A stretch of DNA of 32,262 nt, from UHGV virus genome UHGV-2051569. One strand, given 5' to 3'. Under the pieces are notes generated by a model that was given only the letters and a program-made list of their open reading frames with translations, was not told the DNA's origin and ran no database searches. The stretch's first letter is position 1; each line of letters starts with the position of its first letter. This stretch comes from a virus. Made by a program: the position numbers and the translations under genes. Below, one piece after another: positions 22,465-31,188 of the stretch.

Positions 22465-23469
22465 ATGGGCGCGGAGATTAATATTTTGGAAACTGATTTT
22501 AAAATAACCCTCGAAGGTTTCGCTACTGAGCAAGAAGCAAATAATATCGGTAATTTCACACTAGAAGCTATCCGAGCTTTAACAAAAAATCTCAATCTTG
22601 ATATCTCCAAATTAAAATGCGTGATTGTTTCCTATAACTTCAGTGAAGCTCTTCAAAAGGTAACATCCTCTTACCAACACAAATCCCCTAGTTCATTTAC
22701 CAATAGCAAACAGGGCGCAGCCGTCGGGCAGTTAGTAACAAAAATTGGCAATGATGGGCTATGTGAAGAATATACCCTTGTGCTATCGATTGATTTTTTT
22801 GTTGAGCTTTTCAATGATGGTAGCTTCTTAAAACTGAAAGAAGAAGGATACCTCGCAGTCATCCATCGCATTCACCATGAATTAGTGCACGTACATGAAA
22901 AAAACTTACTAACATGCTTAGCCCAAAACTTTACAGTCAACGAGTATGGTAGCGCGCTTCTTATCTCAGCCACGCGTGCGTGGTCTGAATATCTCGCTAA
23001 TTACATGTCTTCGGGGTCTGCCCCTCAAGAAACTATCGATTTATTTTTAGAGAATCTTGACACTGTTGTAAATGAAGTATCTGACGAGATTGAAAAACTC
23101 ATCTGGGGTTATAAGTACGGTAATATTTCTCTGAATGACATGTATCTCGAAGTAAAAAAACGTATCAGGCTAATCATCAACTCTTATGCTTATGCGATGG
23201 GTTATGTCCATTCTCTAAACATCAATATTAAAGAATACGATCCAAAGCTATCCCTTACACTATCCAACTCAAAGATAAGATATCAATTATCAGAATTAGG
23301 CATTGCTTTTCAGAATCTTTATGGGAAGTTTAATGACCAGCACATTACAGGTTTTGGTGATTTTCGGGAGATAACAATAATCATTGATGAAATATTCAAG
23401 CAGTTTGGGCTTGTTTTAGAGTGTCCCGATTGGTCTGGCGACGGTGAACTCTACATACATGTAAATTAG
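22465..23469 (+). CDS. Cargo gene between portal and cos: hypothetical protein with an HExxH motif (possible metallopeptidase-like)
   Basis: 334-aa AT-rich ORF containing ...AVIHRIHHELVHVHEKN...; no obvious RBS; located between the Q stop and the cos-like site. Confidence 0.55.
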   Translation: MGAEINILETDFKITLEGFATEQEANNIGNFTLEAIRALTKNLNLDISKLKCVIVSYNFSEALQKVTSSYQHKSPSSFTNSKQGAAVGQLVTKIGNDGLCEEYTLVLSIDFFVELFNDGSFLKLKEEGYLAVIHRIHHELVHVHEKNLLTCLAQNFTVNEYGSALLISATRAWSEYLANYMSSGSAPQETIDLFLENLDTVVNEVSDEIEKLIWGYKYGNISLNDMYLEVKKRIRLIINSYAYAMGYVHSLNINIKEYDPKLSLTLSNSKIRYQLSELGIAFQNLYGKFNDQHITGFGDFREITIIIDEIFKQFGLVLECPDWSGDGELYIHVN

Positions 23470-23852: not shown

Positions 23853-24569
23853 TTATCGAACCCTTTTTTCCAGATTGAGTAGGGCTTTTTTGCATTTTTT
23901 TTGATTAATAAACGTTCTATCCAGTATCTTTATATGAAACATCATTACTCTATTGAAGCAAATAAACATTTCTCGGGCATCCTGGCCAACAATCAGAAAC
24001 GACTCGCCATTAATATTTGGAATGTTGCTATTCTTCGATAAATCATCAAATGCCTCAGAGCCACGTTCATTTCTATACATTTCTTTAATAGCCATTACTT
24101 CATCGTGGCGAACGATATTAATCCAAATTAATTTATCTACAGTCAACAATTGCCCATACTCTAAGAAAAATACTCCCTTGGCTAACCAGGTGCCGTATTG
24201 GTAAATCTCCCTACCATTTAGGGGTAATGTTATCTGCGCACCTTTTTTTGTATGCCTAACACTCTGGAATGCTTCACGAAATTTCGAGTCTTTTCTTTTA
24301 AGCGCATTATGGAATTTATTAACAGCATCAAAGCTGCCTGTTGAGTGCTCTCCTACCATGCGGCAAATGACACCTAACACCTCGTCAATTCGGCTTTTAT
24401 CGCCATTGCACTTTTTGCATACATAGAAATCACCTTCGCCGTTGGTTCTATGAATGGAGACTGAAACTTGCGGAATCATGTGTTCAACTGAGCGGCAGTG
24501 GGGGTGATTTTCAACCTTATTCATGAGAACACCGCAATAAACGCAGTGTGTGCTTGGTTTCATATACAT
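23853..24569 (-). CDS. Cargo gene: HNH (His-Me finger) nuclease-domain protein with an uncharacterised C-terminal domain
   Basis: N-terminal CVYCG ... VEHMIPQ ... N ... CKKCNGDKS fits the Cys4 plus catalytic His/Asn HNH pattern; AT-rich; start uncertain (24644, 24569 or 24563; a weak AAGGG RBS precedes the inner ATGs). Confidence 0.6.
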   Translation of the reverse strand: MYMKPSTHCVYCGVLMNKVENHPHCRSVEHMIPQVSVSIHRTNGEGDFYVCKKCNGDKSRIDEVLGVICRMVGEHSTGSFDAVNKFHNALKRKDSKFREAFQSVRHTKKGAQITLPLNGREIYQYGTWLAKGVFFLEYGQLLTVDKLIWINIVRHDEVMAIKEMYRNERGSEAFDDLSKNSNIPNINGESFLIVGQDAREMFICFNRVMMFHIKILDRTFINQKKCKKALLNLEKRVR

Positions 24570-24665
24570 TGCCCTTACAATGTCTAATGACGAATGAGTA
24601 GCACTAAAATAACACAAATCTGATGGTGGGATGTCAGCCCCCATGCTTTAGATTGGACATACGAA

Positions 24666-25113: not shown

Positions 25114-25185
25114 AACTAACGCCTCTCGGAGCCAGTTTCAACCCCGCCAGCACTGAAAGCAAGATTCAGCACCGACGGCGTTTGT
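25114..25185. repeat. ~70-bp imperfect direct repeat, copy B
   Basis: actaacgcctctcggagccagtttcaaccccgccagcactgaaagcaagattcagcaccgacggcgtttg lies immediately 3' of the DinI-like gene stop. Confidence 0.55.
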
Positions 25186-25418
25186 TAATGCAGCCAGCTA
25201 TCGTCCTCCCATACCTGCTGCATGATTTCCATTACTCGTTTTTTATCTTCGTCCAGTTTCAAACCGCTTAACTCAACGCCATTAGCTGAGCCCTTACGAA
25301 TGCGGATAGCAGTCTTTGGGTAAATAGGTTGAAGATTGCGGTACAGCTCAGCCTCAAGTGCATCCAACGTTGCCTGACTAATTTTTTGCTCTTTATCCAA
25401 CGTGATATTGATTCTCAT
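25185..25418 (-). CDS. DinI-like protein (Tum-like antirepressor domain)
   Basis: 77-aa MRINITLDKEQKISQATLDALEAELYRNLQ...EDKKRVMEIMQQVWEDDSWLH aligns along its length with E. coli DinI as recalled; sits downstream of the LexA box. Confidence 0.8.
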   Translation of the reverse strand: MRINITLDKEQKISQATLDALEAELYRNLQPIYPKTAIRIRKGSANGVELSGLKLDEDKKRVMEIMQQVWEDDSWLH

Positions 25419-25421
25419 AAT

Positions 25422-25604
25422 CTAATCAGCCTTATAAAAATTATCATCTTCGGTTTCGTTATTTTCGCTGTTTGCTAGGTCTGCAATGAGAGTGAGCGCG
25501 AGCTTTAAGTCTGATGGCTTGCAGTTTGCAATCAGAGATACCTCGGCAATAAATTGCACACAAGCCCACTTTTGCTGCGTTCGGCTGAAATGTTCGCCAA
25601 CCAT
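25422..25604 (-). CDS. Small acidic protein, first gene after the LexA box; possibly the N-terminal part of an interrupted tum-like gene
   Basis: 60-aa ORF with a GGGAGGG RBS; it ends in TAG, followed by ATT and then the in-frame ATG of the DinI-like ORF. Confidence 0.5.
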   Translation of the reverse strand: MVGEHFSRTQQKWACVQFIAEVSLIANCKPSDLKLALTLIADLANSENNETEDDNFYKAD

Positions 25605-25624
25605 GAAATCCCTCCCATAGGGTT

Positions 25625-25642
25625 ACTGTATATTTATACAGT
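25625..25642 (-). promoter_or_regulatory. LexA (SOS) box overlapping the promoter of the tum-like operon
   Basis: tACTGTATATTTATACAGTa, a near-perfect CTGT-N8-ACAG palindrome about 20 bp upstream of the 60-aa ORF start. Confidence 0.75.
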
Positions 25643-25717
25643 AGCACGTATTGGCAAAAGATGGGAAGAAAAAAAACGAATAGAGCGATTGCTGTATGTG
25701 CATGATATGGATATGAA

Positions 25718-27940
25718 TTACTCATGTATTGGTTTTGATGCTTCAGCCATCGCCGCAACACGATTAAGGATTTTCCGAGCTTTAGCCTCATGCGATGGTG
25801 CTGCGGAAAATATTTCTCCTTTGGCCGTTCCGCGTAGCCATTTACCATCAAAACAACTTTTACCACCGGCCATCAGGTGCAGGGCTTCGCCCCGGCTGAT
25901 ATTAATGCCGGTTGTCAGATGTATTTCGTCGATAGTTTTAGCTATAGCTGCGTTTTGCTCATCCGTTCCGTGGATGAATTTTCGCCGTGCTGCTGGCTTT
26001 TGCTTCCTGAGTCGGTTGGTCAATTCTCGTCTTTCACGCCGACTCAGTGGTTTTGTTAAATCCAGTATCGGTGGATCGCTTTCGCTTCCCGTACAGTTAT
26101 TGACAGAACTCCGAGGGACGGCTTTGCCGTCCTGAAGGTCAACGGCCAAATCAACAGCACGCTTCGGAACAATCTTCCACTGAGTGAGCCGGGTTAAAAT
26201 CGGGCTTCCTGCACCTATGGAGGAATCGTAGACCCCCTTAATACATACCGTTTCCTCACCGTACTGATTAAGCTCGGTACGCGGTTCATACAGTGTGCGC
26301 ACCTGTAAATCGTCGCGACGGACAAACGGCCCACCCTGAGCATTAACATAACCAGCCCAGTCACCAGCGTCGGCGGCATCATGGACGGCGGCAAACTCAA
26401 CGCTCAGACCGTGCGCGGTTTCGGTATCAGCGAGGCGACGCAACTCACGGTAAACCGTCACCGGCGCACCACCAATAAACTGAAACTGACGGATGTGCCA
26501 GCGCGCAGCCCATGCTGAAACGGCGGGGGCTGTCTCTTTCAGCAGCTCACCGCTTTCATCATCGGTTTCACCATCGAGAGCATAACCGTCGATATTTTTT
26601 GAAATGTATTTAGCAACATAGCCGGTTGCGCTGCCTTTCTCCGGGTCAATGGACTCGGCGTGGAAACGTGCTTTTTTGGATTTATCGCTTTTCAGTTCGT
26701 GGCGGTCTTCTTTCCATGCGTATTTACGGACGATGGAGCGAACATATTCAACATATTCCGGCAGCATGAACATCAGCATGTGCCAGTGTGGAGTGCCGTC
26801 GTGATGGGGCTCGGCGACACGAATACCGAAAATACGGACATCTTCCCGATGTAGTTTGGCACGGATACGCGCCCAGATACCGGTTAGATAGTTTTGCGTG
26901 TCAGCCGGGCTGGCACCGCTCCATTTGCTGTTACGGTAACCGGCTTTAGTCGTGGCGTGATATTTTGACGGCGCGGTTAGAGTGTAAAACTCACCGACAT
27001 AACCGAGCTCATTACAGATGTTTTCAAACCCACGAATGCGGGTCATGAGCTCACAGCGGCGAATCGCAGGGTTAGCAACTGAGCCATCATATTTTTCAAT
27101 TAGGCTGATACGGTTGCCGTCTTCGTCTTCGAGATCCAGACCTTTGAGAAATTCACGAGTGCGGCGCTTTTGTTCACGCCAGTCAGTCACGCAGTTTTTA
27201 CTCGCGTAAGTGTTTTTTTTCTTACTGACGTTGCCGACTGCAATTTGCAGGTGTTCGCGCCACGTAGCTGCAACACGGCGCAAACGACCGCGCCACCACC
27301 CATCGTTAAACATTTTGGCGATAGCCGGTGCGATTTCATCCGCACCGACATATTTTTTTTCAACCCGCTCCCAATGTGGTGGGATAACGTTGAATTGGAG
27401 GGAAATAAAGCCAGCACGAATATACCAGGTGTACAGCGTTTTAAGCTCGCCGAATCCGTGGTCATTAATGTTGGCAAGTTCACCACGAATGAAATTAGCA
27501 ATATCAGCGGCCAACAGGTCAACATCAGCGCGCGACATGTCCGGGAGACGGTTATATTGGGCGACCATATTAACCATGCGTGACGACAGATATTGCATTT
27601 GCTGAGTATCAAAATGACTTCCAAAAACAGCGGTTGATACCTTGCTGTTGATACCAGCGCATTCGTATTTTTTTGCGACCAGTTCAAGACGCGGCAATGC
27701 CTTTTTGCAGAAGCTGATTAAAAATGCATTGGCTCGTTGACTACCCTGATTTTGCTCCAGCACCGCAGCAGTGCGATAAACATCTAACCGTACGCAGTCG
27801 GGCTGGAGAGAAAGCACCTTTTTTGCATGCAGCAAAGCCGCGAACATACGGTCGCGACGATGCTGTTGCTCATAAGTAAGGTATGGGCTGGGGATTGCCG
27901 ACCGTGGGACGTTCCACGGATAAGCGAATTGAACAGCCAA
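25718..27940 (-). CDS. A: Replication initiation protein A (rolling-circle nickase, P2 gpA-like)
   Basis: 740-aa ORF with the HxH metal-binding motif (HDGTPHWHMLMF) and catalytic Tyr region (GYVAKYISK) typical of P2 A-type initiators. Confidence 0.9.
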   Translation of the reverse strand: MAVQFAYPWNVPRSAIPSPYLTYEQQHRRDRMFAALLHAKKVLSLQPDCVRLDVYRTAAVLEQNQGSQRANAFLISFCKKALPRLELVAKKYECAGINSKVSTAVFGSHFDTQQMQYLSSRMVNMVAQYNRLPDMSRADVDLLAADIANFIRGELANINDHGFGELKTLYTWYIRAGFISLQFNVIPPHWERVEKKYVGADEIAPAIAKMFNDGWWRGRLRRVAATWREHLQIAVGNVSKKKNTYASKNCVTDWREQKRRTREFLKGLDLEDEDGNRISLIEKYDGSVANPAIRRCELMTRIRGFENICNELGYVGEFYTLTAPSKYHATTKAGYRNSKWSGASPADTQNYLTGIWARIRAKLHREDVRIFGIRVAEPHHDGTPHWHMLMFMLPEYVEYVRSIVRKYAWKEDRHELKSDKSKKARFHAESIDPEKGSATGYVAKYISKNIDGYALDGETDDESGELLKETAPAVSAWAARWHIRQFQFIGGAPVTVYRELRRLADTETAHGLSVEFAAVHDAADAGDWAGYVNAQGGPFVRRDDLQVRTLYEPRTELNQYGEETVCIKGVYDSSIGAGSPILTRLTQWKIVPKRAVDLAVDLQDGKAVPRSSVNNCTGSESDPPILDLTKPLSRRERRELTNRLRKQKPAARRKFIHGTDEQNAAIAKTIDEIHLTTGINISRGEALHLMAGGKSCFDGKWLRGTAKGEIFSAAPSHEAKARKILNRVAAMAEASKPIHE

Positions 27941-29994: not shown

Positions 29995-30840
29995 ATGTCT
30001 AAAAATGATGTTAATGCGTCTGCCGCATTGGAACGTGTCCTTTCTGCATACGGCTTTAAGCAGCAAAAGGAACTAGCCGAAAGGCTTGGCATACATGCAA
30101 ACAACGTGAGTAGCTGGCTTGCTAGAAACGTAATCCCTAGCAACGTTTTCGTTGAGTGTGCTCTTGATACTGGAGCTGACCTGCGATGGCTAATTAATGG
30201 TGAGCTTGCAAATGCAAGATTTGAAGTGGTGAAAACTAAGCTTAAAGGTAAGCAACTCTATGATGAAATCATGGCAAATGGAGGGAGGGCGGTTCTGCGT
30301 CGGATTCTCGATGCGTATGGTTTTACTCTGCAAAAAGAGCTTGGAGATTTATTAGGTATATCTTCCGGCACTATAAGCACTTGGGTTAGACGCGATTTTT
30401 TCCCCGGTGACGTGGTTGTCACTTGCGCCCTTGATACTGGCGTATCGTTAGAATGGTTATCAACCGGAAAAGGCCAGATGCGTAACAGTAATGATGGTGA
30501 ACCGGCAAATGCTTTAACGATTAGAAAGTGCCGCCTCGAGGCTGGCGAACTCAAAGATATCGGACGCTGGACTCCTGATATATCTATGGTTCCATCAAAT
30601 ACTGATGATTTAGTGTTTATTGATGGTGTGAGCACATCTTGGCTTGTTGATAGTTCTAACTCGAAGATAGGAAATGGTCGCTGGCTTATTGGTATTGATG
30701 GCGCACTCGATGTTTTTGACGTAATCAGGTTGCCAGGCGGAAAGGTCAGGTTATCAAATAAGTCTGCTGAGTTTGAATGTAATATTTCAGATATCACACC
30801 ATCAGGTGCGGTTATTTTTACTTTGGAAAAGCATGTTTAA
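29995..30840 (+). CDS. cI: CI-like immunity repressor with a tandemly duplicated HTH domain
   Basis: Divergent from apl/cII and upstream of int; two paralogous ~60-aa segments (ERVLSAYGFKQQKELAERLGIHANNVSSWL...CALDTGADLRWL and RRILDAYGFTLQKELGDLLGISSGTISTWV...CALDTGVSLEWL); start at ATG 29995. Confidence 0.75.
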   Translation: MSKNDVNASAALERVLSAYGFKQQKELAERLGIHANNVSSWLARNVIPSNVFVECALDTGADLRWLINGELANARFEVVKTKLKGKQLYDEIMANGGRAVLRRILDAYGFTLQKELGDLLGISSGTISTWVRRDFFPGDVVVTCALDTGVSLEWLSTGKGQMRNSNDGEPANALTIRKCRLEAGELKDIGRWTPDISMVPSNTDDLVFIDGVSTSWLVDSSNSKIGNGRWLIGIDGALDVFDVIRLPGGKVRLSNKSAEFECNISDITPSGAVIFTLEKHV

Positions 30841-30849
30841 GGAGCAGTA

Positions 30850-31188
30850 ATGAAAAAGTTTATATTTGCGATAGTCTGCATTGCACTTTCTTCCTCAGCC
30901 ATAGCCGCTGAGAAGTTTAAAGAGATAGACGGCGCTGCATATGGTGACAAGTGGCCTCTAACCTTTGAAAAGGCAAAGGTATCATGTGTTAACCGTGCTT
31001 ATGCTTTTGTGTATGACATCAAAACTGATGATAGATATCCTCTGAATGGCATGGCGGTAGATGCTGTTAAATCAGGAAAGCTGGAGGGGTCTAACTTAGA
31101 TGACGTATGGAAGGATGACCCTGAGTATGACGGCGTTAAAATTTCAATTTCACCGGTGATTGATGCCGCTACAGCCCTTTGTAATTAA
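30850..31188 (+). CDS. Secreted (signal-peptide) small protein between cI and int; candidate lysogenic-conversion gene
   Basis: AAGGAG RBS 7 nt upstream; N-terminus MKKFIFAIVCIALSSSAIA|AEK is a Sec signal peptide; mature part ~90 aa. Confidence 0.6.
   Translation: MKKFIFAIVCIALSSSAIAAEKFKEIDGAAYGDKWPLTFEKAKVSCVNRAYAFVYDIKTDDRYPLNGMAVDAVKSGKLEGSNLDDVWKDDPEYDGVKISISPVIDAATALCN

Follow-up and report, generated by a model that had tools for sequence, protein, structure and literature searches.

The region is very probably a tumA-tumB operon for SOS induction, carried by a PSP3/186-like prophage (Peduoviridae, Eganvirus-type) of E. coli, with the TAG codon between its two reading frames serving as the ordinary stop codon of tumA. 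Several E. coli chromosomes contain the window, a stretch of 32,262 nt (UHGV-2051569), with 100% identity as a 186/PSP3-like prophage, and RefSeq labels the two genes there as a 'hypothetical protein' and a 'DinI family protein' beside a 'replication endonuclease'. The two-gene arrangement is already known, as it has been annotated since 2002 as tumA and tumB in Salmonella phage PSP3, whose DNA matches the 661-bp region at 94% identity. The original prediction had offered three readings of the in-frame TAG: a natural pair of genes, a tum gene interrupted by a nonsense mutation, and a site of stop codon readthrough. Its recognition of a LexA-controlled, tum-like operon in a 186-like prophage stands, and so does the natural pair of genes, for which PSP3 annotates an identical layout; the nonsense and readthrough options are not supported.

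The PSP3 record (AY135486; Eganvirus PsP3) annotates a tumA of 183 nt and a tumB of 234 nt with a 3-nt gap, as in the window. Its notes describe tumA as 'similar to 5' end 186 tum; UV induction of prophage' and tumB as 'similar to dinI and 3' end of 186 tum'. PSP3 and the window agree in the position of the operon after gene A, the LexA 20-mer, the ribosome binding site, the lengths of 60 and 77 aa, the TAG-ATT-ATG junction and the long type of CI. They differ by minor sequence changes and, beyond orf37, in gene content: PSP3 has orf38, and the window has in its place two ORFs, an HNH-like one of 263 aa and another of 334 aa. The tumA/tumB layout is common to phages SW9, SI22, SEN1, Midge, RCIP0057 and 613R3. 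A two-ORF organization had been sought in 186, whose tum is fused; it is the closer reference, PSP3, that has the exact layout. Lemire et al. 2011 (PMC3121763), with reference to Bunny et al. 2002, describe the tum gene of PSP3 and Fels-2 as split by a stop codon. They assign the upstream gene of PSP3 to an antirepressor, on the strength of a personal communication cited second-hand, and the downstream gene to a DinI homologue. A search of papers for tumA and tumB as whole words returned unrelated uses only.

All elements of the operon lie on the minus strand of the window, just downstream of the homologue of gene A, a replication gene of the P2 gpA type (27940..25718, same strand). The predicted LexA operator (SOS box), TACTGTATAAATATACAGTA, occupies 25643..25624 and deviates from TACTG(TA)5CAGTA at one of 20 positions. 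No other site in the window comes within three mismatches, no site appeared in 100 dinucleotide-preserving shuffles, and the same box is the sole instance of CTGT-N8-ACAG in the 32-kb window. Its position is that of the annotated LexA site of 186 (U32222), and the 20-mer is identical to that of PSP3. The near-consensus box had been recognized earlier in its plus-strand reading, with the operon ended at 25642, one nucleotide short of the box.

A p95-like promoter (25638..25667, minus strand) is recognized by its homology to p95 of phage 186. When the window is aligned to U32222, the hexamers TTCCCA (-35, 25667..25662) and TACTGT (-10, 25643..25638), which are 18 nt apart, fall on the annotated p95 hexamers TTCACA and TACTGT, and the -10 hexamer lies inside the LexA box. 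The block TTTTTTTCTTC.CA.CTTTTGCCAATACGTGCTACTGTAT is almost invariant between the window, PSP3 and 186. A generic sigma-70 scan of the minus strand did not call the p95-type promoter; the homology to a mapped promoter of 186 nevertheless suggests that TTCCCA/TACTGT would function as one.

The Shine-Dalgarno sequence of tumA, read from the sequence as GGGAGGG (25616..25610), stands 5 nt ahead of the start codon (ATG, 25604) and is conserved in relatives as GGAGGG or GAGAGG. The tumA gene (25604..25422) encodes the 60-aa predicted CI antirepressor and closes with TAG at 25424..25422. After a 3-nt spacer, ATT (25421..25419), the 77-aa DinI-family ORF tumB (25418..25185) begins in the same frame, and reading through the TAG would give a product of 139 aa. 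In the strong ribosome binding site, the order TAG, ATT, ATG, the shared frame and the length of the hypothetical product, the original prediction described the region correctly. The only Shine-Dalgarno sequence of tumB itself is AAGG, which is weak and distant, and its ATG begins 3 nt after the tumA stop, so that tumB is probably translated by coupling or re-initiation. On the 3′ side of tumB, a stable RNA hairpin without a U-tract (25182..25140) takes the position of the partial terminator t95a of 186. Its 14-bp stem is found in both the MFE and the centroid structures, and the fold of the whole 111 nt has a z of -2.5. A terminator scan of the minus strand called none, this hairpin included.

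TumB is a clear member of the DinI family. It matches Pfam DinI (PF06183) with an E of 7e-24 and 84.3 bits against a gathering cut-off of 24.2. Over residues 1–75 it also matches the structure of E. coli DinI (1GHH, E 2.6e-9), an alignment that spans the full length and includes the region of the acidic C-terminal helix, although TumB is encoded by a phage. Identity is 99% between TumB and its PSP3 counterpart, and 47% between TumB and the Tum95.5 portion of 186 Tum. Near the 5′ end of tumB lies a 27-nt block, AATATCACGTTGGATAAAGAGCAAAAA (25409..25383, minus strand), of which 26 positions are the same in the window, PSP3 and 186, while the sequences flanking it have diverged among the three. 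Phage 613R3 and a further locus, L006, match the window at 100% and 98% identity, respectively, across tumA and the opening ~12 codons of tumB. Beyond the block, both continue with a 186-like tumB that is 67–71% identical to Tum95.5 and 47% identical to TumB of the window. Since the type of tumB changes exactly there, AATATCACGTTGGATAAAGAGCAAAAA acts as a joint at which modules are recombined. The converse case is found in Klebsiella ST437 phi4.1, where an upstream protein of the Fels-2 type is followed by a TumB 95% identical to that of the window. In these sequences, tumA and tumB are independent modules, with TumB an exchangeable accessory.

Damaged copies of tumB were also seen. In an Atlantibacter MAG (L017, 1687..1916), tumB is split over two frames behind an intact tumA, and among IMG/VR relatives with intact tumA, two contigs carry an 18-aa truncation of tumB and one a 106-aa chimera. 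These cases are compatible with a dispensable tumB.

The junction was compared across 25 tumA loci, taken from one genome per species. A LexA box lies 38–43 nt upstream of the tumA ATG in all 23 loci that were parsed by script and thus covered by this step. The tumA stop is present in 25/25 loci, as TAG, TAA or TGA. A DinI-like gene follows tumA at seven loci; at the other 18, none was found with four DinI-type queries at a permissive threshold. Where a DinI-like gene follows, the geometry varies. The PSP3 clade, to which the window belongs, has TAG and a 3-nt gap in frame, and Atlantibacter has the same 3-nt gap in frame with TAA. In Phytobacter, TAG and a 2-nt gap place the second gene out of frame, as do TAA and a 17-nt gap with its own Shine-Dalgarno sequence in Winslowiella. 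The phages of the Fels-2 type are similarly diverse: Yersinia MLG42 has TAG and 12 nt in frame, Fels-2 itself TGA and 10 nt out of frame, and Klebsiella ST437 phi4.1 TAA and 11 nt out of frame. Among close relatives the junction is constant. The 3-nt gap, as ATT, TTT or ATC, recurs in PSP3, SW9, SEN1, RCIP0057, 613R3 and 51 IMG/VR contigs, and TAG is found in 51/51 of these contigs and a sense codon in none, with seven bases across the junction left free in the matching.

Readthrough of the UAG, whether programmed or leaky, yielding some 139-aa TumA-X-Ile-TumB fusion equivalent to 186 Tum beside the separate proteins, is the alternative that survives best, yet we regard it as very improbable. 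A single codon separates the two ORFs, which share a frame, and TAG is retained in every IMG/VR junction and in all close relatives. A UAG codon followed by A is a relatively weak termination context, and the TAG of the window is followed by A. Moreover, 186 makes both fused and short forms, and supE laboratory hosts would inevitably produce some fusion. However, the loci that bear the TAG are closely related and do not count as independent evidence; their agreement fits shared ancestry, although a constraint on this codon may also play a part. Outside this group the frame is not conserved, being lost in Phytobacter, Winslowiella, Fels-2 and ST437 phi4.1, and the stop is TAA or TGA in other lineages, including Atlantibacter, whose geometry is otherwise the same. 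Readthrough would have no tumB to reach at 18/25 loci, and tumB modules have been exchanged behind identical tumA genes. That rare readthrough gives a fusion acting as full-length 186 Tum, for instance as an antirepressor tethered to RecA filaments, is equally improbable; if true, split and fused forms would mark the two ends of a tunable continuum. In a related reading, termination and re-initiation at UAG-AUU-AUG might set the ratio of TumA to TumB. Given the comparative data, a selected function for either readthrough or re-initiation at the UAG seems unlikely. The TAG is then best taken as the plain end of tumA, and its in-frame relation to tumB appears to be incidental.

TumA is 98% identical to TumA of PSP3 and matches phrog_1993 with an E of 1e-31; the same PHROG matches residues 1–61 of 186 Tum (E 1e-22). 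A profile of TumA aligned by hhalign to residues 14–45 of 186 Tum gave an E of 1.2e-4 and a moderate probability of 55%. A protein search covering 5.8 billion sequences returned 208 clusters homologous to TumA, some of which bear the UniRef name TumA. Nearly all of the 120 clusters listed are 59–61 aa, with a minority longer, up to 93 aa, and no fused protein of the window type, ~140 aa long, was found among these 120 of the 208. Stand-alone homologues of 59–62 aa occur in more than 12 enterobacterial genera, the clusters coming from E. coli, Salmonella, Klebsiella, Citrobacter, Enterobacter, Cronobacter, Yokenella, Kluyvera, Pluralibacter, Atlantibacter, Kosakonia, Buttiauxella and others. 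Their alignment shows an invariant core, WACVQ.IAE..L.ANCK...LKLAL..IA.LA, followed by a variable acidic tail. The tumA gene is under strong purifying selection, with a median dN/dS (Nei-Gojobori) of 0.10 over 159 pairs in which synonymous sites are often saturated. AlphaFold2 models TumA as a helical hairpin (H8-25 and H30-53) with moderate confidence (mean pLDDT 70). Pfam has no family for TumA, and its profile found nothing meaningful among PDB sequences, that is, no relative with a solved structure. By analogy with 186 Tum, TumA would be an antirepressor acting on CI. The 18 of 25 loci that have tumA without a DinI-like gene behind it point to TumA as the essential, self-sufficient part of the system.

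The repressor of the window also speaks for a pairing with TumA. The cI gene (29995..30840, plus strand) encodes 281 aa with two tandem Phage_CI_repr HTH domains and a CI C-terminal domain. The Pfam match is in two stretches (E 1.5e-47), and 186 CI (PDB 2FJR, 189 aa) aligns with residues 100–274 only. The window CI is 73% identical to that of PSP3. Long CI proteins of this type, at 67–92% identity, were found in exactly seven phages, the ones that carry TumA of the window type, while in all other phages, 186 and the Fels-2 group included, CI is at most 39% identical to that of the window. The duplicated HTH was found in PSP3, SW9, SI22, SEN1, Midge, RCIP0057 and 613R3. As judged from these sequences, the type of TumA tracks the type of CI. 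TumA remains 98–100% conserved while CI falls to 67% identity, suggesting that TumA targets a conserved surface of CI.

These properties bear on another explanation, in which the first ORF is a leader or regulatory uORF that controls the DinI-like gene rather than an antirepressor, and induction proceeds through something else. The absence of a Pfam domain in the first ORF would suit such a role, as would the weak, distant AAGG and the start of tumB 3 nt past the preceding stop, which suggest translational coupling. A leader is nonetheless hard to reconcile with a protein that is strongly conserved, has an invariant core and evolves at a dN/dS of 0.10. Furthermore, the ORF persists behind a LexA box at the 18 loci without a DinI-like gene, is homologous to the N-terminal, non-DinI part of 186 Tum, and co-occurs with one type of CI. 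The PSP3 data reported in PMC3121763 also give it antirepressor activity. We hold this explanation to be slightly less probable still than readthrough, and retain TumA as the predicted antirepressor.

Phage 186 offers the characterized counterpart of the operon. In its record (U32222), Tum is a LexA-repressed protein of 146 aa that inhibits DNA binding by CI, with the internal starts Tum95.2, 95.4 and 95.5 and a DinI domain at residues 87–145 (Pfam); the original prediction gave its length, its DinI-like C-terminal part and its internally initiated short form correctly. 186 also produces the DinI-like part by itself, as Tum95.5, whose GTG start is preceded by AAGGAGGG. 186 and the window have homologous promoters and operators, N-terminal parts and DinI-like C-terminal parts. 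In 186, however, one continuous ORF with a linker of ~12 codons takes the place of two cistrons, and overall identity is 37%. CI of 186 has one HTH domain versus two in the window. Downstream, 186 carries orf97. At the junction, the ~36 extra nucleotides of 186 form a linker ending in AAGGAGGGCAAAGTG, which includes a strong Shine-Dalgarno sequence and the GTG of Tum95.5, where the window has GATTAGATTATG. An alignment with 186 had been proposed to see whether the TAG replaces a sense codon. With the linker of ~36 nt the junction aligns too poorly to map any single codon, and the codon-by-codon counterpart of the TAG was dropped.

Among the phages of the collection, fusion is seen only with sequences of the 186 type, all ~37% identical to the query. 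Since TumA is widely found on its own, DinI proteins likewise form a stand-alone family and fusion is restricted to the 186 type, the fused tum of 186 is most likely the derived state, produced by the fusion of two genes. Lemire et al. 2011 (PMC3121763) describe 186 Tum as an apparent fusion of an antirepressor with DinI. The least probable of the alternatives, that a 186-type tum was recently inactivated by a nonsense mutation, leaving the prophage non-inducible or surviving on the DinI-like half, draws on the superficial resemblance of 139 aa to the 146-aa Tum and on the homology of the C-terminal halves, but can practically be dismissed: the stop is present in PSP3 and in the six phages that share its layout, among them phages isolated as viable virions, in 51/51 IMG/VR contigs and in 25/25 species loci; tumA, mostly found without a DinI-like gene, shows no relaxed selection; the 186 junction differs by a linker with a Shine-Dalgarno sequence and GTG rather than by one base; and the clusters listed hold no fused protein of the window type.

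Two other systems resemble the tumA-tumB operon in organization. In Fels-2 (STM2728 / STM2726.1), MLG42 and ST437-OXA245 phi4.1, an upstream protein of ~62 aa precedes a 77-aa DinI-like gene that is 78–95% identical to TumB of the window. A LexA box lies upstream in Fels-2 and MLG42; in ST437 phi4.1 it was not seen at the annotated start. The upstream protein, however, differs in type from TumA, the spacers of 10–12 nt contain their own Shine-Dalgarno sequence, and the frame varies. The TumA profile aligned to the Fels-2 upstream protein by hhalign gave an E of 0.088, which is not significant, and homology is not claimed. As a separate observation, in MLG42 and Fels-2 (L030 and L031) a CTG-N10-CAG box is followed closely by a half-repeat resembling ...ATATGTACAGT, perhaps forming two adjacent LexA sites, whereas the window has a single box.

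The dinI-gfoA/gftA operons of the Gifsy prophages (PMC3121763) are likewise LexA-controlled and pair a DinI homologue with a small antirepressor. Inactivation of the repressor occurs there by binding and not by cleavage, as it would in the window. Unlike in the window, dinI comes first; the Gifsy phages are lambdoid, and their antirepressors and repressors belong to unrelated families.

A course of induction can be proposed for the window. In the lysogen, LexA would occupy the operator that overlaps the -10 of the p95-type promoter and keep the operon off. Upon DNA damage, LexA would cleave itself and the operon would be transcribed, a derepression that is established in 186, where the LexA-controlled p95 drives Tum and Tum inhibits CI (PMC7708051). 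TumA would then bind the CI of the prophage and block its binding to the operator, so that the lytic promoter is derepressed and induction follows; for this step we infer from 186 Tum, the PSP3 report and the co-occurrence of CI and TumA. TumB, by analogy with DinI, may act on RecA filaments and modulate the SOS signal. The operon of the window would work like Tum, and lies outside the fused single-polypeptide form.

For annotation, this means that a 60-aa 'hypothetical protein' beside a DinI gene is TumA, the likely trigger of induction. The element should be counted as SOS-inducible, which matters where fluoroquinolones or mitomycin C would mobilise P2/186-like prophages. To the arrangement known from PSP3, the survey adds the modest detail that TumA usually stands alone and tracks CI, that TumB is exchangeable, and that the fused 186 form is the exception.

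Other loci of the prophage and its relatives drew attention as well. Two cargo ORFs are located at the variable hotspot of P2-like phages, in the stretch from the portal gene to the SOS operon. The 263-aa ORF (23853..24644, minus strand) has a CxxC...H...CxxC HNH-like motif and only weak PADLOC matches to Septu PtuB (E 7e-5), with no Pfam family. The 334-aa ORF (22465..23469, plus strand) has neither a Pfam nor a PADLOC match. Either could be an anti-phage defence gene. Between cI and int, a 112-aa ORF (30850..31188, plus strand) with a signal-peptide-like N-terminus matches DUF2511 (E 1e-18) and, from these features, looks like a lysogenic-conversion (moron) gene. In Escherichia phage 500465-1 (L032, 1301..1688), a TIR-domain gene is annotated directly 3′ of the tum-like/DinI pair, and is further defence-type cargo at the tum locus.
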